From a virus (lineage: Duplodnaviria > Heunggongvirae > Uroviricota > Caudoviricetes), in the IMG/VR virus record IMGVR_UViG_3300031344_000001: 64,000 nt of DNA, one strand, 5' to 3'. Below, piece by piece: positions 28,407 to 58,207 of the stretch; the first letter of the stretch is position 1; every line of letters starts with the position of its first letter. Both the position numbers and the translations under genes were made by a program. Under the pieces are notes generated by a model. It was not told the DNA's origin. It saw nothing but the letters and a program-made list of their open reading frames with translations, and made no database searches.

Positions 28407-28862
28407 GTGAGCGCGAGCGTGACGGCCAAGCTGTCGCGCGCCGACCTCGACAAGGCGATCCGCGAGGCCGAGACGGCACTCGCGCGTTTTGGGGTGCAAG
28501 ACCGCTTCACCGTGAAGATCAAGCCTGCACGTAAGGGCGAATGGATTGGCATGTATCGAAGTCGGACCCAATTTCACGGGCACCGGCTGCCGATCTTCTG
28601 GATCAGCGAAGCAGCCCCACGGATTGCGAAGGCCACAGGCTGGTCTCTCCACAGGGCGCTGGTCTCAACGCTCCTGCACGAGTACGGGCACGTGATTTAC
28701 GAGTGGGCGAAGCTCGAGTCCCCCGCCCTGATGCAAGACATCGAGAACATCACCGACGATGAAGAAGACTTCGCGGAGACGTTCGGCATTGCCGCTATGA
28801 ATGGAGCGTCATCGCCAGCGTACAGAAAGATCGCGGCGCGTTATTTCGAGGAGGCTTCGTGA
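28407..28862 (+). CDS. Zincin-like metallopeptidase (HExxH)
   Basis: TLLHEYGHVIYE...EEDFAETF. N-terminal ADLDKAIREA resembles the shared tag. Confidence 0.75.
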   Translation: MSASVTAKLSRADLDKAIREAETALARFGVQDRFTVKIKPARKGEWIGMYRSRTQFHGHRLPIFWISEAAPRIAKATGWSLHRALVSTLLHEYGHVIYEWAKLESPALMQDIENITDDEEDFAETFGIAAMNGASSPAYRKIAARYFEEAS

Positions 28863-28874
28863 ACACGCACACGA

Positions 28875-29738
28875 TCAGCGAAAGGTCACAAAGCGCCCGC
28901 TCGGGTGAACGTAGCCGACGAAGCGCCCCTTGCTGACGCTGTAGACCCCCGCGGGTGCCCCCATCTCCTTGGCCACGCGCTTGGCGTCGGTGAGGTCGTA
29001 CGGCCGCACCGCGCCGCCCACGCGGCGCATCGGGACCTTCACCGAGCGCTCGGCGTGGCGGTGCGTCGCCTCCGGGTAGACGACGTACTCGTAGTCACGA
29101 GTCGCGGGCGCGATCGTGCTGTGCGCGAGCCCCCCTCCAAGCCTAGCCCGATGCTGTTGGTACACCGCATTGATCTCGGATTGAGCGATTCCGGTCCTGC
29201 TTGCGTAGTAGGCACCCATTCCAGTCCAGGGCTTCATCATCACGCGCCAGATTTCTGCCAACTCGTCGGGTGTATGCGCCTTGCTGAAATGTCTGTGCGC
29301 CCACGCAGCAGGTGCCCCCGGTGGCAGACTGATCTTGGAAGTCGCGATTGTGCTGTGCCCGCCGGGACCTCCGTGCTCCCCGCCGCCCGCGAGCGCCTCG
29401 GTGATCTCGGCGTCGAGCTGCGCGGGCGTCTTCTTCACCGGCGTCTCGCTCACCTCGCGCGGAGGCTTGCGCGCGCCGGGACGCTCGTTGATCACGTAGC
29501 GCTGCCACAGGTTGTAGCCCTGCCGCCCACCGACGCGGATCTGGACGCTACCCTTGCGCGCGCTGCCCACCACCGAGCACGCCTTGTGGCTCCTGCGACA
29601 CGCTTGCGCGGCGTGCTTCACTTCCTCGGCGAGCGCCTTCGCGGCGGCCTCCTTCGAGTGGAACTCGTGCGGACGTCCCGTGACCTCGTCGACGAGGTAG
29701 CCGCGCTGCGTCGCGATGATGTAGTGCTTGCCGGCCAT
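28875..29738 (-). CDS. Modular basic protein with the QLDxEI tag and two HSTI linkers
   Basis: KKTPAQLDAEITEAL, GGHSTI and LAHSTI. Confidence 0.75.
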   Translation of the reverse strand: MAGKHYIIATQRGYLVDEVTGRPHEFHSKEAAAKALAEEVKHAAQACRRSHKACSVVGSARKGSVQIRVGGRQGYNLWQRYVINERPGARKPPREVSETPVKKTPAQLDAEITEALAGGGEHGGPGGHSTIATSKISLPPGAPAAWAHRHFSKAHTPDELAEIWRVMMKPWTGMGAYYASRTGIAQSEINAVYQQHRARLGGGLAHSTIAPATRDYEYVVYPEATHRHAERSVKVPMRRVGGAVRPYDLTDAKRVAKEMGAPAGVYSVSKGRFVGYVHPSGRFVTFR

Positions 29739-29781
29739 GTGCGTCATCCTTGCAGGCTTTTGTCGTCGAAAGTCGAGCGCT

Positions 29782-30582
29782 TCAGCCCTGAGTGGCCGCG
29801 AGGTACCGCGCGACAATCTTCGACGCGCGATCCGGCGTCGTGCGACTGCGACTCGCACTCTTGATCGAACGCAGCCCATTGTCGTGAATGAGCACGTCAA
29901 CGAGGTCATACCCAAGCTTGTTCTTGGGGTCGGGCACCTTCACGTTGTAGTTGGTCCCGTCCGAACGCATCGAGATCGCGAGGATCTCGGGGAACTCCTC
30001 GCGGCGCTGGATCGTCTGCACGTGACGGCGTGCCTCCGCCGTCGGGTACAACCCCCCGTCACGGTTGATCGTGCTGTGAGCCTTGCGCCCGCGCTTCTTC
30101 AGCGCCGCGTCCTCCGCCGCCAGCTCCTGCGCGATCTGCTTCGCGATCCCGATCTGTTCCCGGTACTGCTTCTCGGTCAATCCAAGCTCAGCCGCCGTCT
30201 TGTTGCCGAGGTTGTGCTCGTGCCGATAGCGCAGACAGTTCGTGCACAGCGAGCCGGACAACGGACAGTGCTTGCCTGGCGCGTAGAGGATGGCGTCGAC
30301 CTCGCGACCGATCTTCGCGTGCTGACGCTTGGGCTTCTTCGCGCCACGCGACAGCCCCAGCTTCTCCACAGCCTTGTAGATCTGCTGCGCGTCCTCGGCG
30401 TGAAGTGCCGCGGAGTTCGCGTGCATCGACCTATTCGTCATGATGTCGCTGCGCTCCGCGTCACGGTGCACGTCGGCGGCATCCATGTGGTCGTCGGCCG
30501 TCCAGTCCCCGAAGTTCGGGTGCAGCTGGTAGGCCGCGTACACAGGCTTGCCGCTGCTCGTGTGTCCGATCGTCTTGGGCAT
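29782..30582 (-). CDS. Modular basic protein with HAKI and HSTI linkers
   Basis: MPKTIGHTSSGKPVY start, RQHAKI and KAHSTI. Confidence 0.7.
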   Translation of the reverse strand: MPKTIGHTSSGKPVYAAYQLHPNFGDWTADDHMDAADVHRDAERSDIMTNRSMHANSAALHAEDAQQIYKAVEKLGLSRGAKKPKRQHAKIGREVDAILYAPGKHCPLSGSLCTNCLRYRHEHNLGNKTAAELGLTEKQYREQIGIAKQIAQELAAEDAALKKRGRKAHSTINRDGGLYPTAEARRHVQTIQRREEFPEILAISMRSDGTNYNVKVPDPKNKLGYDLVDVLIHDNGLRSIKSASRSRTTPDRASKIVARYLAATQG

Positions 30583-30584
30583 CG

Positions 30585-31151
30585 CTAGATCCTCTCGTCG
30601 TAGAAGCCCTGGAGCTTCTCCGCGAGCGCGGCGGCGGCCAACGGGAACGGCGAATGCCCGCCCTCCGCGTCGCTGTCCACGTCGTCGGTCCACTGCCACA
30701 TCTCGGACTCACTGAACGCGACGCTCCCGTCCTCCGAGGCGTGCGCGGCGAGCATGTCCGGCCAGGCGTAGCGCCCACGCGCGAACTCGACCGCGCGCAG
30801 CTCGCTCGGCGTGAGCTGGAGCCGGTAGGCGACCCGAGACGGCGGCTGCTTCTTCCGTGCATGGCTCGAGGTGCAGGCCCCGCACGGCGACTTCTTCACC
30901 AGCGCGCCCGCGATCTCGCGGTCCAGCTGCGCGGGCGTCTTCTTGGCAGTCGCCGCCTTCGCGTGTTCCGCAGCCGCCGCCTTCGCCTTCCGCTCCGTGG
31001 GGAACGTACCGACGTGCTCGTGCTTGCCCGGGGGACGGAACGAGACCGTGTGCTGGTCCTTGCGGTGCGAGATCACGTAGTCGTGCTCGGTACCCCCGTG
31101 CGAGATCGGAGCCTGGATGCCGGGCATCCCCGGCTCCTTTTTCCACTTCAC
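30585..31151 (-). CDS. Modular protein with the QLDREI tag
   Basis: KKTPAQLDREIAGAL and SSHARKK. GTG start overlaps the upstream stop. Confidence 0.72.
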   Translation of the reverse strand: MKWKKEPGMPGIQAPISHGGTEHDYVISHRKDQHTVSFRPPGKHEHVGTFPTERKAKAAAAEHAKAATAKKTPAQLDREIAGALVKKSPCGACTSSHARKKQPPSRVAYRLQLTPSELRAVEFARGRYAWPDMLAAHASEDGSVAFSESEMWQWTDDVDSDAEGGHSPFPLAAAALAEKLQGFYDERI

Positions 31152-32191
31152 TCGAAGATCTCCGCGTAGCGCGTGATGCCGGGCGACGCCTCCAGCCAGT
31201 CGAGCAGGCGCCCCACCGCGCCGCGGTAGCCGGTCCACTCGACCACGGCGTAGCGCGCGTCCTTCGGCCGCCGGTATGACCGCCCGCGCGCCAGCTCCGC
31301 CTCGGCGAGCGGGACGCGGTCGTCGCGCCACGTGGCGTCGGCCGGGAGGTCGCGCCCGCGATCGAATTCGCGCGGGTCGATCTCGACGGCGAACAAAGCG
31401 CTCGCAGCCTTCGTGGCATGTGCCGTCCTACGCCCCGGACGCGATCCGCGGAGAGCCTCGGTGATCTCGCGATCGAGTTGGGCTGCCCGCGCCCTCAGCT
31501 TCGGATCGCGCTTGATCCGCTCGACGGCCTTGATCGCGGCGGCGATGTCCTCCACCACCTCGTCATCCACGGACTTCCTCTTCCTCGCGTGATGCACCGA
31601 ACTGCCAGACGGCCCGAACCACCGCCCGTCGCTGGTGACCGCGTGCCCCGCCCGATGAGCGCGCTCCAGCGCGTAGCCCACGCCCAGCACATCGGCACCT
31701 CCGATGGCGCGAGACATGCCGTGAGCGTCGATCTCTGTGCCCGGGCGCATGTTGCTGAGATGGGCCCTCACGCGCGCGTCGAGGTCCATCGTCGCGTGCG
31801 CGCGGGGCGGCACCTTGTAGCCCTTCGCCCGCGCCTGCGAGAGCCCGATCGCGATCGCCTGCTCGCGCGAGGTGACCTTGGCGCCGCTGCCGCTCTTCAG
31901 CTTGCCGCGCTTGAACTCGTGCATCGTCCGCCCGACCTTCTCGGACGCCTTCTCACTGTACTTCGTCGCATGCGTGGGCGCGTCGGCGTCGGCCCTCTTC
32001 GCGCTGAACTTGAAGGCCCCGGCGCTCGAGACCGCGCCGCGGAGCTTGTACTTGGCCTTGGCGATGGCCGCCGCGGATGTGGTGGCCGCCTCGTAGTACG
32101 TCTTCACGGGGGCTCCCCCCACAGTGACGTCCACTCTCCAACGCGGGACTTGCAGCATCTTCTTGTCCTCTCGGGTCATCGGCGCATCCAC
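31148..32191 (-). CDS. Five-module polyprotein-like protein containing a DUF6496-like module and the tag
   Basis: HATK, HATM, HARK and HATK linkers. Module KYSEKASEKVGRTMHEFKRGKLKSGSGAKVTSREQAIAIGLSQAR. Tag AQLDREITEAL. Confidence 0.8.
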   Translation of the reverse strand: MDAPMTREDKKMLQVPRWRVDVTVGGAPVKTYYEAATTSAAAIAKAKYKLRGAVSSAGAFKFSAKRADADAPTHATKYSEKASEKVGRTMHEFKRGKLKSGSGAKVTSREQAIAIGLSQARAKGYKVPPRAHATMDLDARVRAHLSNMRPGTEIDAHGMSRAIGGADVLGVGYALERAHRAGHAVTSDGRWFGPSGSSVHHARKRKSVDDEVVEDIAAAIKAVERIKRDPKLRARAAQLDREITEALRGSRPGRRTAHATKAASALFAVEIDPREFDRGRDLPADATWRDDRVPLAEAELARGRSYRRPKDARYAVVEWTGYRGAVGRLLDWLEASPGITRYAEIFE

Positions 32192-32811
32192 TCGTACGGA
32201 CGGCGGGCCTCACGCTCTTCTTCTTGAAGGCGCTTGGACTCCTCACGATATCGACGGTAGTTCGCTTCGTGACCGTGCTCCTGGGCCTGGGCCCACGTGC
32301 TCGACACCAGCTCATCGCGCTCGCGCTGGAGCGCGCGGATCGGCTCGGACTCGTACGCCGGATGCCCAGGTACGTACGGCACGTGTCCCCCCGCCTCGTA
32401 GATCATTTTGTCGAGGGCGTCGCGTGTGCGCGCCATCTTGAGGTGGCCCTCGTCAGTGTAGGACGCCTCGACGGAGGCCACGGCGCGCTTGTACGCGGCG
32501 ACCTTGGACCGCCACTTCTTCATGACCTCGACGGGGAGACCGAGATCGACGGCCTGCGCGATCTCCCTGTCCAGTTGAGCGGGCGGCGTCTTCTTCGTCG
32601 CATGGTGCGTGCTTCCCACCGCCTGGCGTCCCACCCCGGTGACCTTGAACAGCGGGCGGAGTCCGAGGAAACCGTCCGGCTCGATGAGCCCGCGCGCGCG
32701 CAGCACCTCGCGGGTGCGTTCGTCACCCCCGACGATCCGACCGAACATGTGGCGACTCGCCGCTTCGAGGATGCGACGCTGCGCGGGCGTCAGCTTGGCG
32801 GACGTGGTCAC
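32176..32811 (-). CDS. Winged-helix-like N-domain plus tag plus helical C-domain
   Basis: KLTPAQRRIL...LRARGLIE...KVTGVGRQAV, then HHATKKTPPAQLDREIAQAV. Confidence 0.72.
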   Translation of the reverse strand: MTTSAKLTPAQRRILEAASRHMFGRIVGGDERTREVLRARGLIEPDGFLGLRPLFKVTGVGRQAVGSTHHATKKTPPAQLDREIAQAVDLGLPVEVMKKWRSKVAAYKRAVASVEASYTDEGHLKMARTRDALDKMIYEAGGHVPYVPGHPAYESEPIRALQRERDELVSSTWAQAQEHGHEANYRRYREESKRLQEEEREARRPYEWMRR

Positions 32812-33032
32812 GGGCTCAGCCTACCAGAACTACTACCGGCACCGACGGCGGCGGCGGGTCCCGAAGCACGGCAGCGCGCCCTGGCAGTCCGGCAAGGGGC
32901 CCGTGTCCACGCTCAGCATCGTGACCGAGCTCGTGGTCACCACCCGCGGGTTCGGCGGGCACGCGCCCGCGGGGATGCAGATCAGGTTGGTCTTGACCAC
33001 GGGCTGATCGTAGCAGTCCTCACGGCGCGACC

Positions 33033-33434
33033 TCAAGAAAGTGGCCTCACGAGACGGCGGCCGGCGAAGCGGCGCAGCACCTTGCGGTGTAACGGGATCA
33101 GGTCCCACGTCCACGCGACCTCCCGGGGCACCCATGCCGATCGCGTGTTCTCGCCGTCGAGCAGGCGCACCAGCCCGTTCCAGTCGTCGGCGTAGAGTAC
33201 GTCGAGCCTGCCACCACCCGGCACGGCCACCTGCGTGAGCGGCGAAAGCGCGTAGACACGGAGACCCGCCTCCTCATGCGACTCACGCATCGCGGCCTCG
33301 GTGACAGACTCACCGTTCTCGATCCTGCCGCCCGGGAGGTTCCATCGTAGAGGCATCCACGGATCGGTGGGCCCGCGCAGAAGAAGCAACACACGCCCGC
33401 GACCATCCTCGAAGATCACCGACACGCCGCGCAT
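33033..33434 (-). CDS. NUDIX hydrolase
   Basis: [27 protein letters not shown] Nudix box. Confidence 0.9.
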
Positions 33435-34242
33435 GCGGTGAACTTACACCGATCTTCGCAGCCTCTCCCTGGACCTTCGTTGTAGAAAGCACCCATGCGA
33501 ATCGAACTCTCCGAAGGCGAAGCCGTCGTCGTCACGTTCCGAGGCACCGACGGTGAAATCACCGTCGCCTTCAAACCCGAAGACGTGCAGATCCTCACGG
33601 GCTGCCGCGAGGACGTAGCGCGTGAGTTGCCCTACGGCATCAGCGTCCACACGGATATGCCCGACACGGCCAACCGTGTCGGCTTGATCTACAACGAACC
33701 TCTCGCCACTCGACCCCCCAAAGAAGGCGTGCCCCTCGCCTGAGGGACGCCTCAGCTCAGTGCCCTCGTGACACCCTGAGCGAACCCGCGCTACGATCAC
33801 CTCGTGGCCACACGCCTCTTCTATAACGCCGACCTCGTCGAGCAGCTGGCCGCGTGCGGGATCACGGCGCGCCGACGCTCGTCGGCCGACGCCCCCGCGG
33901 CGGGTTTCGTGATAGAGGGACGGCGCGCTCCACTGCGAGCACGCCAGGCCGTAACCAACGTGATCGCCGTGCGAGAGCACGTGACGATCACGGGCCCCCG
34001 CCAACTGACGGCCCTCCCCCCGCCCCTGGCCCTCCCCGCGTCGACGGCGCCCGGGCCCCAGACGGCGCTCGAGCTGGTCGAGGAGTGCGCGCGCCTCCGC
34101 CGTGACAACCAGAACCTGTCGAACGAGGTCACGCGGTTGCGCGCGGAGATCAACCGCCTGACCGCTGGACCCGCCGCGCCGCCGCCGCGGGATCCGCCCG
34201 ACGACGCTTCGACGCGGTTCTCACTGCTGGAGTTGAGCTGAC

Positions 34243-34683
34243 GTGAGCCTCACGCCGCGAACACTGCGTGAGTTGGAGGCACGCCTCCTCCGTCTGGAGG
34301 TTCGCGTCGAGATGCGCCGCCGCCTGCGCCCCGAGGTCTGGGAGGCACGGAAGGACGGCCCGTGGACCGAGGCCGACTTCTACGACTGGGAAGGTCCCTG
34401 CGACTTCCTCATCGACGTCGACGCGGTCGAGCACGCGGACGGGCTGATCCTCTTGTGCCCCGCGTGCTACGACGACCCGCCCGTGGGGCCCGTCGGCACG
34501 CACAGCGTCGTCTGCTGGTCGCCGAAGGTCAGCCAGGACCACGACCCGAAGCCCGGGCGCTGGGACCTCGTCGGGACCTCGATCGACGACCTCACGCTCG
34601 TCGCCGGGTCGTCGAGCGTCTTGCTCCAGGGCGGCTGCAACGCGCACTTCTTCGTGCGTCAGGGGCGCGTCGTGCCGTGCTAG
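34243..34683 (+). CDS. DUF6527-like protein
   Basis: LCPAC...H...WDLVGTSIDDLTL...SVLL..GCNAHFFVRQGRV. Confidence 0.6.
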   Translation: MSLTPRTLRELEARLLRLEVRVEMRRRLRPEVWEARKDGPWTEADFYDWEGPCDFLIDVDAVEHADGLILLCPACYDDPPVGPVGTHSVVCWSPKVSQDHDPKPGRWDLVGTSIDDLTLVAGSSSVLLQGGCNAHFFVRQGRVVPC

Positions 34684-34988
34684 CGTCGCGTACGGTGGCT
34701 GTCGGCGACTACGCGAAGCTCGACCGCGCTCTTCGGGTCCGCGTGGAGGCGTCGACGAAGCACGCTCTACTACGGCTCCAAAGAAGAGCACGCGGCCACG
34801 GAGCGCGTCCCGCCGGTTCTTGCGAGATCACGGTTGAATGTTTACTCTTTGGAAAGTCCCATTTCTGGGGGTTGAAAAATGAGCACCGAGACGATCTGAT
34901 CTAAGCTGTTGGAACCCCGTCGACGATCCGCCGTTGCTGCGGGCCGAAGAAGTCGCATTTCATCCACAGCGTCAGTAAGATCCGCCCG

Positions 34989-35468
34989 ATGGGCACGACC
35001 TACATGGACTTCGGTACCGGCGTCTTCCACGTAGACGGCGACGCGCCGCTCACCCAGGCCCAAGTCGACTCCGTGTGGCGGCACCTGCCGACCACCGGTG
35101 CGAGCTGGGTCGAACGGGGACGCCTCTTCGCGCAGCAGTCCGACGGCGCGCCAGCGTTCAACCTCGGACCCGTCGAGCGCGGGGTCAAGGGCGTCTCCGC
35201 CGATGTACGGCGGAATCACGCGACAAAGAAGAAGCCCACAGCACCTTCTCAGTTGGACCGCGAGATCGCCGAAGCCTTGTCGAAGGACTATCGCGTCACG
35301 GTGCGTGTGGAAGGGGCCCCCAAGCCGGTCCACGTTTCCCCTTGGATGACGCGCGCGCAAGCCGAACACGCAGCCAAGAATCACAAGGCTCTGATCCGAG
35401 ATCGTGGTTGGACGCAGGTTGTCGAGATCGAAGACAAGAGCGGAGCTGTTACGCGACTTCCACGCTAG
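34989..35468 (+). CDS. Two-module protein with a central HATK linker and tag
   Basis: NHATKKKPTAPSQLDREIAEAL. Confidence 0.75.
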   Translation: MGTTYMDFGTGVFHVDGDAPLTQAQVDSVWRHLPTTGASWVERGRLFAQQSDGAPAFNLGPVERGVKGVSADVRRNHATKKKPTAPSQLDREIAEALSKDYRVTVRVEGAPKPVHVSPWMTRAQAEHAAKNHKALIRDRGWTQVVEIEDKSGAVTRLPR

Positions 35469-36570
35469 TTCAACGTTCCGCCTCGGTGCGTGCAGCTCGG
35501 AGAGATCTCTCTTTGTTGGCGGGTCGCCAGCCTCGTCGGGTAGGATGACCCTCGTGCACTCCGCGACCGTCCACGCCCCCAGCGCCGTCAAGCCTCCGTT
35601 GAACGACGACCGCCTGCCCCGCCGCTGGGAGCGGATCGCGCTGGAGGTCCGCTCGTGAGCGACGTGACGTCGCCCGACGCCGCCCCTCCGTCGGCGGACG
35701 ACATTGCGCACCTGCTCATGGGCTCGGGGATCCCGATGCCCCCGCCGCCGTCGAACAAGGGGGCGCTGCGCCGCAAGCTCCTGGCGGCCGTCCTGATCGC
35801 CGGCGTCGGCGTCGGCGCGTCGGTCATGTCGTGCGTCGGCCAGTCGTTCAGCTACCGGCAGGCACGCGCGCTGGAAGGTATCGAGCAGCAGCTCCGGGAG
35901 GTCCGCGCGAGCTGCCCCTCGTACGTCCCCGCGCCCCCGAGCGCCGGTGCGAAGATGCCATGAGCCGGACGAGGACGAGGCACCGTGACCCGATCTCTCC
36001 GAGGCGCTACCTCCTCAAGGACTGGCCCCCGCGACGCCGTGCCCTGCGCACGAGCTGGCACCTGCGCGACGCGATCGCGAACCTGAGGACACCGTGAACC
36101 GCGAGGAGGCCGCGCGCGCGATCGAGACCCTCGCGGCTTCACCAGCCGCAAGGTGGATCGGCAACAGGCTCATCGGCAACACGCTGCTCCAGAAGTGCTC
36201 GCTTTGCGGCGCGGAAGAGACGCTGGAGGTCCCGCCGAACATCCGCGGTCCCGGCGACGTACCGGCAGGCTTCGACGAGACCCTGTTCGCGTGGAAACGC
36301 TCGTTCCAGGTCACCCACGAAAGCTGCGCCTCGTGAGCGCTGCACACCCGACCTGCGAGGACTCCAGCTGCGCGATCTGCCGAGAGCGCGTGCGCCTGGT
36401 AGCCCTGAAGATCGAGCGCGGACTGCGCCCGGCAGGGAACTCCCGGCTCATCATCGCGAGGATCAAGGAGCGCGTACGCCGCCTCCAGGCCCAAGGGCGC
36501 GCGTGAAGTGACACCGAGCGCGGCACTGACCGACAATTCGACGAGACTCACCTACCGACAGGAACGAACC

Positions 36571-37068
36571 ATGGCGAAGCGCTACTCGGGCAACCTCCAG
36601 ATCAGCGTCGTCTACGACGACAAGGGCCACTACCGGACGTCGGTGAGCAGCGGCGGCAAGCACCTGTGGAGCGGCGTCGTGAACCCCGCGCCCGCGGGCT
36701 TCGGCCCCGGCATCGCGTACGACTCGCCGAAGGCGTACGACGAGGTAGCCTCGAGTGCGCTCGCGTTCGCCGACGACGAGGAGCACGGCATCGCCGACGA
36801 GGCCGAGTTCGACGAGGACCTCACCGGCTATCTGATCCGACGATCGCCGCCGTCAAAAACCAAGACACCGCGCCACGCGACGAAGCTCGGCGGTGGGTCC
36901 GCCCCGTGGTACCGGTGGCTCGTGAACTACCGCGACAGCCGTGGCAAGATTCAGCAGACGCAGGTCGACTCCACGACGCGCCGAGACGCGATCGCTGCCG
37001 CAAGCGTCGGCCACCCGACGGGGCGCGACTTCACGGCCGCCAAGCTCTCAACCAAGCCGCTGAAGTAA
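36571..37068 (+). CDS. Two-module protein separated by HATK
   Basis: MAKRYSGNLQI...YDSPKAYDEVA domain, RHATK linker, then a second small domain. Confidence 0.72.
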   Translation: MAKRYSGNLQISVVYDDKGHYRTSVSSGGKHLWSGVVNPAPAGFGPGIAYDSPKAYDEVASSALAFADDEEHGIADEAEFDEDLTGYLIRRSPPSKTKTPRHATKLGGGSAPWYRWLVNYRDSRGKIQQTQVDSTTRRDAIAAASVGHPTGRDFTAAKLSTKPLK

Positions 37069-37079
37069 GAAGATCCGTC

Positions 37080-37532
37080 ATGGCCGTCTGGGGCACGAAG
37101 GTCACCAAGCAGAAGATCGAGCAGCTCGCTCGCGCGTTGTTCCCGAAGTACGGGATCAAGGACGTGCCCAACCTCCTCGCGACGATCGTCAAGTACCGTA
37201 GCAACGACGGTCACGTGAAGATCTGGCGCCCGGAGGGCGGCTGGGGTTGGTTCGCGACACCGGCCGCGACTGTCGTCACCCCGAGCCTCGTCACCCTCAA
37301 GTTCCCCGCCGACTACCGGCGCACCGCCGCGATGGCGCGCGACGATCTCTACCGCCAGCTCGAGAACGCCACGCTCAGCGTGCTGTCGGAGGACGAGGTC
37401 GAGGCCGCAATGACCCGAGCCAGCGCCAGCGCCAGGCCAACGACGCCGCAGCACTCGACGAAGAAGGCCCCCGCCCAACTCGACCGCGAGATCGCGGCGG
37501 CGCTCCACAAGAACCGCAAGAGTCGCCGGTGA
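37080..37532 (+). CDS. Hypothetical protein with a C-terminal HSTK linker and tag
   Basis: QHSTKKAPAQLDREIAAAL. Confidence 0.75.
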   Translation: MAVWGTKVTKQKIEQLARALFPKYGIKDVPNLLATIVKYRSNDGHVKIWRPEGGWGWFATPAATVVTPSLVTLKFPADYRRTAAMARDDLYRQLENATLSVLSEDEVEAAMTRASASARPTTPQHSTKKAPAQLDREIAAALHKNRKSRR

Positions 37533-38096
37533 GCACGCGCAAGCCGAGGGAAGCGCCCATGGACGCGGGCGCTTCCACAGCCCCAAGCGAGAGCGCTGGT
37601 ACAACGACGCGGTTCTCGCCGCCGCCTCCTCCACCCCGCCCGCAGAAGAAGTCATCCCGCGGACCTCGCGTCCGTCTGACCCACTTCGAGATCCGCCGCG
37701 GCGAAAGCCTCCGCCTGCGGATGTCGGTGGCCGACGACGCGCTCGCCGAGGTCGGCGACGAGCTGGGCGCGCTGGTCAAGAAGATCGTCCCTGGCGTGCG
37801 GGTCGCCACCAGCGTCGCGCCAGAGCAGCAGCTCGTCTCCGAGTCCCAGTCCCACGTCCCCGAGCACGCGGACTTCATCATCTCCCCGCAGCATGACGAC
37901 AACGACGCGGCCTACCACGAGACACTGCGCGAGCACATGACCGCGCTGTGCGGCTCCCTCTGCGACGAGTCGCTCGCCGACGTGCTCAAGATCGCGCGCG
38001 ACGAGAGCGCACGCCGCGCGGAGGGGCGCAACTGAGAACGCCAACGTCGACCGTTCTCCCCGCGGCGCGACGCTTGGCGTAGTACGATCAGACGCG

Positions 38097-38471
38097 ATGA
38101 TCCTCGTGAAGAAGCAAGGCCCCTTCGAGGTCTTCTCCCGTGGCGTCGAGGAGCCCTGGACGGTCTGGCGCGACGGACAGCCCTACCGCCAGGTGTGGAC
38201 GTGGAAAGAAGTCGACGAGATCTTGCGCGAGACGGTGGTGCCCAAGGCCAGCCACCACCACGCCACGACCAAGAAGACCGAGGTCGTCCTCGCGAAACGG
38301 AACCGCCCGCGCGCGGGCGTCGGAGAACCGCGCCACTACGCGACGCTCGTCGACAAGGACAGCGGTCGCCACGTCTACAGGTCTCCGGTGAAGGGCACCC
38401 CGGAGGAGGCTGCCGGCCTCGCCGAGGCGTTCGCCGCGCGGCGAGGGCTCACGATCGCGGGGCGTGTCTGA
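38097..38471 (+). CDS. Two-module protein separated by HATTKK
   Basis: SHHHATTKK linker between two ~55 aa modules. Confidence 0.65.
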   Translation: MILVKKQGPFEVFSRGVEEPWTVWRDGQPYRQVWTWKEVDEILRETVVPKASHHHATTKKTEVVLAKRNRPRAGVGEPRHYATLVDKDSGRHVYRSPVKGTPEEAAGLAEAFAARRGLTIAGRV

Positions 38472-43252: not shown

Positions 43253-43264
43253 AGCTAGCCTCCG

Positions 43265-43350
43265 CGGAAGACGGCGGAGTCGAACCGCAACCCCTCACGG
43301 GGTCCATCCGTTTAGCAAACGGCTCTCGCGCCACCGCGAGTTCATCTTCC
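43265..43350 (-). tRNA. tRNA-Ser(GCT)
   Basis: GGAAGAT/GTCTTCC-G acceptor, loop TTGCTAA, long variable arm, GGTTCGACTCC T arm. Confidence 0.85.
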
Positions 43351-43355
43351 ATGCG

Positions 43356-43440
43356 CGGAGCATTTGGGAATCGAACCCGGACCGTTTCCGGCCTCCCCGT
43401 TTTCGAGACGGGTGCCCACGCCATGCGGGCCTCATGCTCC
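43356..43440 (-). tRNA. tRNA-Ser(CGA)
   Basis: GGAGCAT/ATGCTCC-G acceptor, CCCGT-CTCGAAA-ACGGG anticodon arm, long variable arm. T stem has two mismatches. Confidence 0.75.
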
Positions 43441-43523
43441 AAATCCAGGAGTCGCTCAGTAGCGGGTAGCTACGAGCGACTGCGACTAGACGAGAATGAG
43501 AAGAACGACGTCATCGAAACACT

Positions 43524-43601
<78 letters not shown>

Positions 43602-43606
43602 CCAAG

Positions 43607-43635
43607 AAGCTATGCGACTACAACAGCCGCGTCAA
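43607..43635 (-). promoter_or_regulatory. Sigma70-type promoter for the Met/Ser/Ser tRNA cluster
   Basis: TTGACG-17 nt-TAGCTT immediately upstream of tRNA-Met. Confidence 0.6.
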
Positions 43636-44149
43636 GCCCTATCTGAGGATCGATTCTTGTGAAAAATGTAATGCGCCGCGCCAACGGACACCCGGTACTT
43701 CGCTGCGAGATCTCGAAATTCCATTCCTGCCCGTCGGTCAGCGCAGAGCGCAACCTCGTCTTCATCGGACAGCCGCCGTCGCCTCAACGAGGCGTGTACG
43801 GCCATCGATCGGCGAACTTCCGATAGACGATCCATGCTGTTTTGTCGCGGGGTGCCAAGAACCAAGTTGGTGGACCTATTGTTCGTGCAATCCCCATCGA
43901 GGTGACGCACCTCAAGACTCTCCTGAAAGACGGCCTCTCCATAAAGCTGATAGGCCGCAATACGGTGAACTTCGACGTTCATCACACGCCCCTCAATCTT
44001 CAAACCAATGGCACAGTACCCACTACCAGCCCTACGCGAGAGAGAGAGAGCCTTCGTCCGTTTGGACCAAACACGTTTCCGTCCCCATCAACGGTATAGC
44101 CGCGACGGATCGCTTCTAGTAACAGTTCACGTCCTCGCAACGTGCTCAT
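43632..44149 (-). pseudogene. HNH homing endonuclease, frameshifted at a (CT)6 tract
   Basis: N-part MSTLRG...GYTVDGDGNVFGPNGRR starts at ATG 44149. C-part GY...VHRIAAY...VRHLDGDCTNNRSTNL plus an HTH-like tail. Removing one CT unit joins the two frames. Confidence 0.8.
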
Positions 44150-44261
44150 AGCCACAGACTAAACCCGCCGCACCGAAAACACCGAAGCTCAGAAGCCACA
44201 ACGATTAACGCTTGACTGAATCTTGGAGGAGCCTGCATAGTGCCTCGTTCTCTGAAAACTT

Positions 44262-53811: not shown

Positions 53812-54525
53812 CGCTAGGCTTTCGCGTTCGCTGCGCCGAAGTCGCCGCGCTACGCCTCACATAACGAAGCAAAAAATCCGCGTTTTGTTACCGCCTTCGA
53901 TAGACTCGAAGGAGCATGGCAAAACCGGTCAAGGCCAAGGAACAGATCAGGTTGGGCACCGGAGAGGTGATGACGCTCGGCGCGGCACTGGATCGCGGAC
54001 TCGTCACGCTGGGGACAACGGAAGAGCCGGCCCTCCGAGGCGAACGTCTCACCGTGCGCACGTACTACGCCAAGGACCCCGTAGCCGATGAACTGTGGCC
54101 GGTGAGTCGCGCGTTATTCGAGAGCCGCTCCACAGGAACCTTCAAGCCAGGTTCATCGGCACCTCCAAAAATAAGTGTGCCGAAAACCCCTCGTGCGCCT
54201 GTTGTTACAGCCACGACTACGCCCTTCATGGTGGTTTCAAACGGCGATCACGTCGGCGACTATGCCGATTTGCCGAGTGCAATCGCGGCGGCCGATCGCT
54301 GGCTAGAGGAGTACGACCGACACGTCCAGATTTTCAAAGGCTCTCGGGTGCTGTCAAAGAAAGAGATCGACGCTGCAAGGGCTCCCGCCAGCGCGCACAT
54401 GCACGCGGAGAAGAAGTCCCCATCGCAGCTCGACCACGAGATCGCCACCCTGGTGCCTTCGTGGCGCAGCGTGGTCAAGCGCTAGGCGCTAGGCGTTCGC
54501 GTTCGCTGCGCCGAAGTCGACGCGC
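53812..54525. repeat. 39-bp direct repeats (53812-53850 and 54487-54525) flanking the 53916 gene
   Basis: CGCTAGGC[T/G]TTCGCGTTCGCTGCGCCGAAGTCG[C/A]CGCGC, 37 of 39 positions identical. Confidence 0.9.
53916..54485 (+). CDS. Modular protein with a C-terminal tag
   Basis: AAGGAG RBS. Ends HMHAEKKSPSQLDHEIATL. Confidence 0.78.
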   Translation: MAKPVKAKEQIRLGTGEVMTLGAALDRGLVTLGTTEEPALRGERLTVRTYYAKDPVADELWPVSRALFESRSTGTFKPGSSAPPKISVPKTPRAPVVTATTTPFMVVSNGDHVGDYADLPSAIAAADRWLEEYDRHVQIFKGSRVLSKKEIDAARAPASAHMHAEKKSPSQLDHEIATLVPSWRSVVKR

Positions 54526-57010: not shown

Positions 57011-57586
57011 CTAGAACGGCAGCCGCACCGCATCCTTCACGTCAACACCGAGGCTCGCTAAAGCCTTCTTGATGTTGGTGACGGCCTCAGCCTTGGTGTA
57101 CTCGACTCCCTCGGCGAGGGTGTCGGATCCAGTGCCCCAGGTCGTCTGACCTTCCCGCAACTGCTCGACCACCCATGACCATTCATCATCATCAATCGCG
57201 GACAGTCCATAGCCGATCTTGCGGGGCTTGGTGAGCGCCTCGGCGATCTCGCGATCTAGCTGCTTCGGCGACTTCCTTGCCTCCGGCGGCTCCGGCGGCA
57301 ACGTCACGCTGATGTTGACCCACTGGTCTACGACGTTGACGCTTGTGCGCGCACCGGGCACGGCCTGTTCTACTGCGCGCGCGTGACCTTTTGCGGACTG
57401 CACGAACTTGCGGCTTGCTGGCGTGTCGGCATCTGGGTGGGTTCTGCCTGATGTGTTGTCGGCGGCCGAGAAGACGAAGTCTTCGTTTTCGGCGAACCCC
57501 GCCGTGCGCATGATGCGGCGGATTGTTTGCGCAGCGATCGCTTGGTTCACGCTGTCCAGTATAACCGCCGTTTTCGGGATTTTCAG
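57011..57586 (-). CDS. Two-module protein with a central tag; probable CTG start
   Basis: GAGGAG-5 nt-CTG AAA ATC. RKSPKQLDREIAEAL lies between the modules. Confidence 0.65.
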   Translation of the reverse strand: MKIPKTAVILDSVNQAIAAQTIRRIMRTAGFAENEDFVFSAADNTSGRTHPDADTPASRKFVQSAKGHARAVEQAVPGARTSVNVVDQWVNISVTLPPEPPEARKSPKQLDREIAEALTKPRKIGYGLSAIDDDEWSWVVEQLREGQTTWGTGSDTLAEGVEYTKAEAVTNIKKALASLGVDVKDAVRLPF

Positions 57587-58087: not shown

Positions 58088-58207
58088 AGCAGCCGAGTGA
58101 AGAGTGCTTGGATGAATGCAGGGAGTTTTGAAATCCCAACCTTCGGCTTCGTAGGCCGACGCTCTACCGTTGAGCTATGCGTGTGAGCACTCTAAGGATT
58201 GGCTGCT
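58088..58207 (-). ncRNA. tRNA-Arg(ACG)-like domain on a long extended stem
   Basis: TAGCTCAACGGTAGAGC D arm, TCGGC-CTACGAA-GCCGA, degenerate T arm. The acceptor is replaced by the stems AGAGTGCT/AGCACTCT and AGCAGCC/GGCTGCT. Confidence 0.65.

Follow-up and report, generated by a model that had tools for sequence, protein, structure and literature searches.

In the prohead processing of phage T4 by gp21, substrates carry an N-terminal capsid targeting sequence; propeptides and tags of this type direct proteins to the inside of the particle, and this peptide is cut away. The sites used by prohead proteases end in Glu, reading [LI]-x-E in T4 and [AGS]-x-E in the phiKZ group. Adenovirus AVP, pS273R of African swine fever virus (with pp220 and pp62 as substrates) and poxvirus I7L cut basic core proteins or polyproteins into several products at a short consensus, in these cases a Gly-based one (GG↓X, AG↓X) that is recognized by Ulp1-like cysteine proteases. 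A further group, the polyvalent proteins of phages and of conjugative elements, was reportedly described by Iyer, Burroughs, Anand, de Souza and Aravind in 2017 as strings of small unrelated domains, ParB-like nucleases and zincin peptidases among them, which were proposed to be delivered together with the DNA and to yield separate effectors on processing. Here we describe a peptide motif with the core H-[AS]-T-[KR]-K that recurs in small proteins encoded by a 64,000-nucleotide stretch of a virus of the Caudoviricetes (IMG/VR record IMGVR_UViG_3300031344_000001; the whole of this stretch is referred to as the window). The motif is concentrated between positions 28875 and 38471 and is often accompanied by a helical tag of the form QLDxEI. 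It acts as a separator at module boundaries in disordered linkers, and from this behavior we tentatively infer a protease site that separates the modules, together with the cleavage itself, the bond that is cut, the protease responsible and the part played by the helix.

Prohead processing in giant phages (phiKZ, 201phi2-1, SPN3US; gp175, gp245) acts on a short consensus in many unrelated head and ejection proteins of a single phage, with several cuts per precursor or propeptide (PMC10052503). The motif described here differs from the prohead sites in that a logo of 227 stand-alone and 78 tag-linked sites contains no conserved Glu and has the core R-[AS]-H-[AS]-T-[KR]-K, and it differs from the prohead targeting peptides in that its position upstream of the shared helix would leave the helix in place. 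Unlike the sites of AVP, pS273R and I7L, it shows no requirement for Gly. The proteins that carry it resemble the polyvalent proteins in two respects, since one tagged protein has a ParB N-terminal domain and a YgjP-like zincin occurs with modules separated by motif variants; however, polyvalent proteins reach a very large size and no separator shared among them has been described, whereas those studied here are 100–400 amino acids (aa) in length and their modules are nearly all ORFans. The explanation that we favor over its rivals, quite possible although short of probable, is that the motif is a multi-site processing signal of the viral polyprotein kind. Its His-Ala-Thr consensus is unlike the known prohead-protease sites.

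The His-Ala-Thr motif in the window and among its relatives

In the region 28875–38471, which has 17 called proteins (2726 aa), the pattern H-[AS]-[TR]-[KIMT] occurs 13 times, whereas 200 composition-preserving shuffles of the same proteins gave 0.43 matches on average and never more than 3. The pattern is absent from the remaining 87 called proteins of the window (13,800 aa), with 1.36 matches expected. An unbiased tripeptide scan returned QLD and HAT as the top two enriched tripeptides of the region. All of the HSTI, HAKI, HARK, HATK, HATM, HSTK, HATT and HAEK instances that an earlier, sequence-only reading of this DNA had listed were found in the genes to which they had been assigned, and the motif-bearing genes are real, codon-biased genes. 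The association between motif and tag proposed in that reading was borne out when tagged and untagged open reading frames (ORFs) were compared: the motif is carried by six of the 10 QLDxEI-tagged proteins in the window versus three of the 94 untagged ones (Fisher p = 1e-5).

Synonymous codons differ among the copies of both the site and the tag. Codon use at the sites is near the genome background, and Ala and Ser alternate via unrelated codons. A DNA repeat as the source of the motif was therefore ruled out, and the same evidence indicates that selection acts on the peptide and not on the DNA. The observation is real, and it extends to a whole clade of relatives.

The core H-[AS]-T-[KR]-K was found in more than 350 related metagenomic proteins, with up to six copies per protein. 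For the protein encoded at 31148–32191 there are 209 homologues, many of them on contigs of 0.1–0.5 Mb, and nearly all have two to six sites of the form H-[AS]-[TRK]. Alignments of 20–120 homologues showed that H128, A129, T130, H197, A198 and H254 of this protein are invariant or nearly so and that the Pro/Gly/Ser/Arg linkers around these conserved residues vary in both length and sequence. A profile of the nine window tags led to 130 proteins by word search. Applied to 1.84 billion representatives, it picked out at least 247 clusters (50% identity). A set of 106 non-redundant tagged proteins contained 165 H-[AS]-[TRK] sites against 30 expected, and 108 of the 165 are sites other than the one directly preceding the tag.

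The motif residues depend strongly on one another: of 222 ATK tripeptides, 180 follow a His, and among 320 occurrences of H-x-T-[KRMIV] the variable residue was Ala in 252 and Ser in 45. A logo drawn from 227 distinct stand-alone sites reads R(-2)-[AS](-1)-H-[AS]-T-[KR]-K; position -1 is occupied by Ala, Ser, His or Gly, and position 3 of the motif is Thr in 75–87% of the sites. Little information is present beyond -3 to +4, and the resulting core footprint of about seven residues (-2 to +4) fits a protease cleft or a short linear motif.

The pattern AQLDREIAEA, a common variant of the tag, gave four matches in 185,579 GTDB species genomes, none of them genuine, and P0223 was not found in the GTDB genomes. 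A DNA pattern for QLDREIA gave 22 matches in IMG/VR, one of which was genuine (L092, with an N-terminal tag), and the pattern KKxPAQLDREIA identified 22 soil and sediment metagenome loci. No DNA match was obtained in phage GenBank records, and IMG/VR scans that used the protein or alignment A1 as query yielded nothing but ordinary free genes for DUF6496, which was also the sole known family found in scans against Pfam, PHROGs and NCBIfam. When 118 tagged proteins were scanned against Pfam, the matches were single and mostly weak, and nearly all of the proteins had no Pfam domain. In a literature search QLDREI and DUF6496 were absent, the matches to HATKK and HSTKK were irrelevant and the motif was unmentioned. 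Judged from the sequences collected, the motif is a protein-level signal that is general in a clade of giant (0.2–0.5 Mb) uncultured phage-like elements of soil and sediment.

Module boundaries, module starts and the tag helix

The clearest view of the sites in their structural setting came from the 347-aa, five-module protein encoded at 31148–32191 (minus strand), which contains HATK (31961–31972), HATM (31787–31798), HARK (31580–31591), a second HATK (31409–31420) and a tag (31463–31480). An AlphaFold model based on a 120-sequence alignment showed five separately folded modules, with a mean predicted local distance difference test score (pLDDT) of 85 and a predicted template modelling score of 0.37. 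Values of pLDDT below 50 occur only at residues 195–198 and 250–255, which are the sites H197 and H254, and the sites H70 and H128 coincide with the remaining two dips in confidence. As modelled, the protein has the general properties of a polyprotein, namely independent folding units in a single frame with exposed linkers that share a common site. Foldseek searches with this model returned weak winged-helix matches only, and the Atlas comparison assigned a generic ferredoxin-like or ACT-like fold to the C-terminal module.

The surroundings of the sites are those of a linker. Around 122 stand-alone sites the hydrophobic fraction is 0.03–0.10 from -6 to +5 versus 0.265 overall, and it is normal again on either side; the segments between sites have a median size of 85 aa (interquartile range 62–108). 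The claim that the site sits in linkers between small modules is thus backed by the local composition, by the segment sizes and by the AlphaFold model, in which four sites lie at confidence minima between modules and not inside folded domains. The product of the gene at 28875 was also modelled, from an alignment of four sequences, and this model (mean pLDDT 52) was uninformative on its two sites.

The distribution of the sites along the proteins is that of a separator. Only seven of 423 sites lie within 25 residues of the C-terminus, where 11.5% of the residues are found and about 49 sites would be expected, and 12 of 423 lie within 30 residues of the N-terminus, where 13.7% of the residues are found and about 58 would be expected. 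Among 82 insertions or deletions (indels) of at least 40 residues between homologues, events that are partly non-independent, both ends fall at a site in 38 and one end does in 35, giving 73 of 82 in total; an end was counted as lying at a site if it was no more than eight residues away, and random placement would put both ends there in 4% and one end in 26%. One such event could be followed in detail in the 290-aa gene at 28875–29747 (minus strand), which encodes a folded N-terminal module, the tag KKTPAQLDAEI (29403–29420), HSTI (29346–29357), a 78-aa cassette, a second HSTI (29112–29123) and a C-terminal module. The 78-aa segment between the two HSTI sites is missing from the 80%-identical homologue P0209, and it therefore represents a recent module capture. 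The G+C content at third codon positions is 0.67 in the cassette (29112–29357) versus 0.92 in its flanks, which amounts to foreign codon usage, and a 15/16-nt direct repeat encoding HSTIA bounds the cassette.

The position of the His relative to the start of free-standing modules could be determined for DUF6496 (PF20106), which is module 2 of the protein encoded at 31148–32191 (E = 1e-18; 67.8 bits versus a gathering cut-off of 24; model positions 1–57 of 58 matching residues 77–130). In ordinary phages and bacteria DUF6496 is a free protein of 60–70 aa that lacks His-Ala-Thr, whereas a DUF6496 module enclosed by a pair of sites of the His-Ala-Thr type is confined to this clade. The free-standing DUF6496 proteins start with MARKY (65 of 120), and at those columns the fused copies have HATKY or HARKY. 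Internal tags read (H)HATKKSPAQLDREIAEAL, for example HATKKSPAQLD, and N-terminal tags start with MARKSPAQLD, MAKKTSAQLD or MTKKTAAQLD; the modal distance from Met to Gln in the N-terminal tags equals the modal distance from His to Gln, which is 8. A systematic comparison, resting mainly on two module families, put the first residue of free-standing relatives no more than about two positions from the His. A Met codon has to change at all three bases to become one for His; the His is therefore under selection and no mere leftover. After removal of the Met, which takes place before Ala, Ser, Thr or Pro, the free proteins would begin where a cut adjacent to the His-Ala pair would expose a new end.

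In 51 of 57 cases the His lies 8–9 residues N-terminal of the Gln of QLDREI, and the earlier observation that the site directly precedes the helix in four genes was confirmed (32176, 34989, 37080 and, in the form HAEK, 54228). The sequence-only reading had gone on to suggest that the cut clips off the tag. This part did not hold, since the site is upstream of the helix and few tags have a second site downstream (23 of 105 within 45 aa); 15 of the 105 tags are C-terminal. In most proteins the fragment downstream of a cut would consequently carry the helix at its new N-terminus. The segment REIAEAL, as at 35250–35290, weakly matches the heptads EIAKALR and EIAQALK of designed coiled-coil peptides (PDB, CC-Hept and CC-Type2; E = 0.01), a match that hints at an amphipathic helix for docking or for self-association and oligomerization. 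Two other assignments of the tag were tried and rejected: T4-like I-x-E cleavage inside it, given that the Glu is not conserved, and a beta-clamp-binding motif (QL[SD]LF), given that position 4 is Arg and not a hydrophobic residue.

Proposed processing at the motif and alternative explanations

We propose that H-[AS]-T-[KR]-K, mostly preceded by R-[AS], marks the N-terminal edge of each module of 50–110 aa, and that an endopeptidase of the element or of its host would cut at or beside the His-Ala bond in the exposed linkers, releasing the modules of small basic polyproteins of the bead-on-a-string type from one another. In fusions of the motif to KKxPxQLDREIAEAL, cleavage would turn the amphipathic helix into a new N-terminus, and this end would equal that of the proteins starting with M-A-[RK]-K-x-P-A-Q-L-D-R-E-I. 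The downstream module would retain the helix, which would serve as a shared peptide for docking or assembly. A site for an endopeptidase that acts in trans on some seven linker residues is the simplest reading because the protein-level signal always lies between two substantial units. The protease site put forward in the sequence-only reading accordingly gains from the placement of that signal exactly at the module boundaries, from its behavior as a separator and from the match to the start Met.

Several observations weigh against such processing. Position 3 of the motif is Arg or Lys in 13–38% of the sites depending on the set, or about a quarter, and the homologue sets were collected via DUF6496 or via the tag and are hence a biased sample. 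A few proteins start with M-x-H-A-T-K-K, in which a cut would remove only 2–8 residues, and the carriers are strongly basic, a property that would also fit a nucleic-acid-binding motif. We know of no prohead protease that uses a His-Ala-Thr site. With respect to the tag, 30 of 105 tags have no upstream His-Ala, one recurrent tag family is entirely without it, and the His-Ala before the tag comes and goes among orthologues; tag and site are therefore separable. The earlier proposal of a two-part system of tag and cut site is retained in that the motif is enriched in tagged proteins, and it is weakened in that the two parts are separable and a cut would usually not clip the tag.

The enzyme is a further point on the same side, as no protease was identified among the candidates examined. 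The zincin-like gene with an HEYGH sequence at 28407–28862 (plus strand) adjoins the cluster and has an HExxH motif. The Atlas comparison provided no more than leads, with a feature score of 0.90 to ATLF-like clusters and template modelling scores of 0.48–0.53 to the Zincin_1 and YbeY models, and the gene had no sequence match in Pfam, NCBIfam or PDB. It has eight homologues versus more than 200 for the presumed substrates, and these are on short contigs; the other giant motif-bearing contigs and the 22 related loci contain no copy. The gene is not co-conserved with the motif and was rejected as its protease. No prohead protease gene of the S77, S78 or S80 type was recognized in the window proteins scanned. 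Metal-protease-like genes are also present at 45825–47545, where a YgjP-like gene (HELTHH), an SprT-like gene (Pfam match) and a gene with the motif HEIVERH bring the number of such small genes, with the HEYGH protein, to four; the HEIVERH gene (45825) ends in a tag variant, QMDREIAEVL (45861–45878). At locus L116 a YgjP-like zincin domain is found with N-terminal modules separated by HARK and HAKK.

The motif might instead be read intact, as a docking site recognized by one shared partner, a modification site, or an AT-hook-like minor-groove or other nucleic-acid contact on basic proteins coating or condensing the genome. Carriers of the motif or the tag, including the genes at 48744 and 45825, have a median isoelectric point of 9.6 versus 6.0 for the rest of the window (p = 3e-4); Arg at -2 and Lys at +3 and +4 flank the motif; the Thr is in a basophilic R-x-x-x-T-K-K context; and one module has weak winged-helix matches. 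Up to five or six copies per protein lie in flexible linkers, and AT-hooks recur in the flexible linkers of HMGA proteins. Cutting would moreover be pointless in the proteins starting with M-x-H-A-T-K-K. However, an intact motif fails to explain the avoidance of C-terminal tails, the placement at N-terminal edges and the coincidence with the start Met. The presence of Arg or Lys for Thr in about 25% of the sites argues against an obligatory phospho-acceptor, and the core is without the Gly or Pro of the AT-hook kind, so that we consider recognition of the uncut motif unlikely, although a serious competitor. A role of the coding DNA itself has to be considered as well, in which the motif would be kept mainly as a cassette-exchange junction whose sequence gives microhomology for in-frame insertion, deletion and swapping. 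The His boxes (G-x-H-x-H) of T-even tail-fiber adhesins, which are structural metal ligands in one fiber, bound segments exchanged by recombination; the motif resembles them as a short His-containing element that bounds swapped units and is unlike them in joining unrelated globular modules. An exchange junction would account for the 73 of 82 large indels bounded by the motif, for the 78-aa cassette with foreign codon usage between direct repeats encoding HSTIA, and for the use of GCG in 32 of 41 site Ala codons versus 51% overall. The shared DNA, though, is only 9–12 nt, and the DNA homology is weak because Ala/Ser and Thr/Arg/Lys alternate via unrelated codons and synonymous sites vary; nor is there any account of a near-invariant His-Ala-Thr in long-diverged orthologues. 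Cassettes do recombine at the motif, but this more probably follows from a functional separator than gives rise to one, and we regard the junction as the main reason for its retention as distinctly unlikely.

Self-cleavage, with the His as base and the Thr as nucleophile, would dispense with a separate protease. At the GAIN/GPS (H-L↓T) and Nup98/PIDD (H-F↓S) sites, cis-autoproteolysis takes place within folded beta structure and requires the nucleophile, and it depends on a strained turn within the folded domain. The motif shares with these sites a His two residues before Thr or Ser, and the sequence H-small-T with Thr dominant at position 3 matches their His(P2)-x(P1)-Thr/Ser(P1') logic. In contrast to them, the sites described here are in disordered, low-confidence and hydrophobic-poor linkers and not in a folded domain, the flanking modules are unrelated folds, and Arg or Lys is tolerated in place of the nucleophile in about a quarter of the sites, including the nearly fixed HARKK before the tag of the DUF6496 family. 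Autoproteolysis at the motif is for these reasons highly improbable. A compositional or chance origin in His/Ala/Thr/Lys-rich linkers was weighed too, in view of the abundance of Ala, Ser, Arg and Lys in the linkers; it is contradicted by the shuffles (0.43 versus 13 in the region), by the 30 expected versus 165 observed sites in tagged proteins, by the positional coupling and by the conservation in alignments, which leave it a negligible probability.

Motif-bearing genes, their surroundings and the meaning of the separator

Between 28875 and 32811, five motif-bearing genes are arranged head to tail on the minus strand with overlaps of 4–16 nt or gaps of 2–34 nt, and this tight packing suggests translational coupling of the whole string. 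In addition to the 290-aa and 347-aa genes, the string contains a 266-aa gene at 29782–30582 with HAKI (30310–30321) and HSTI (30067–30078), each after a basic linker; a 188-aa gene at 30585–31151 with the tag at 30912–30929 and HARK (30852–30863) 17 residues past it; and a 211-aa gene at 32176–32811 in which the composite HHATKKTPPAQLDREI lies between two domains (HATK at 32593–32604, QLDREI at 32560–32577). The 266-aa gene is without a canonical tag, and the sequence GREVDAIL after its HAKI (30282–30321) resembles a degenerate REIAEAL helix. A small ORF inside the cluster, at 33033–33356 (minus strand), contains a Nudix-box-like sequence (GGRIENGES...) recognized by eye only.

The remaining carriers of the region are on the plus strand. 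They comprise a 159-aa gene at 34989–35468, with HATK (35217–35228) followed by the tag (35250–35267); a 165-aa gene at 36571–37068, with a stand-alone HATK (36874–36885) after a Ser/Pro/Lys linker; a 150-aa gene at 37080–37532, with HSTK (37452–37463) followed by a C-terminal tag (37476–37493); and a 124-aa gene at 38097–38471, in which HHHATTKK (38259–38270) lies between two small modules. Farther along the window, an 85-aa gene at 54228–54485 (plus strand) has the variant HAEK (54402–54413) and then the tag QLDHEI (54426–54443). Two tagged genes on the minus strand have no His-Ala site: a 120-aa gene at 48744–49106 with a C-terminal tag (48765–48782), and a 179-aa gene at 57011–57550 with an internal tag (57245–57262), which is a member of the recurrent 'VTLPPEAKKSPKQLDREI' family.

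The window has a G+C content of 66–69% and is densely packed with small ORFs, most of them without a Pfam family; its proteins are recorded in the protein database on a contig of 461,400 bases. It also encodes RNA ligase, HNH, 2OG-oxygenase, ThiF and VWA genes. Eleven tRNA genes, including five for tRNA-Leu in a row, were observed (43264–45818, 51568–52034 and 58113–58184), as in huge phages, together with a transfer-messenger RNA gene at 44262–44616 with the tag ANDNGAVAFAA.

The carriers are nearly all ORFans, and the shared separator and helix offer a way into this dark matter. Together they predict mature protein starts, co-acting proteins, and one enzyme and one receptor for all, and the motif already allows these genes to be divided into their functional units before structures are predicted and annotations made. 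Should the cleavage prove true, it would represent a new protease specificity and an unusually clear use of polyproteins, with in-frame cassette capture, in a bacterial virus. A true polyprotein strategy would go further, with dozens of small basic strings, a dedicated His-Ala-Thr protease, cut-exposed helices that dock to one partner (for example in the loading of particle or genome) and capture of cassettes in frame; we consider this full scheme somewhat unlikely. If it is true, a separator before each module would provide these elements with an evolvable loading platform for proteins of host takeover or genome packing.

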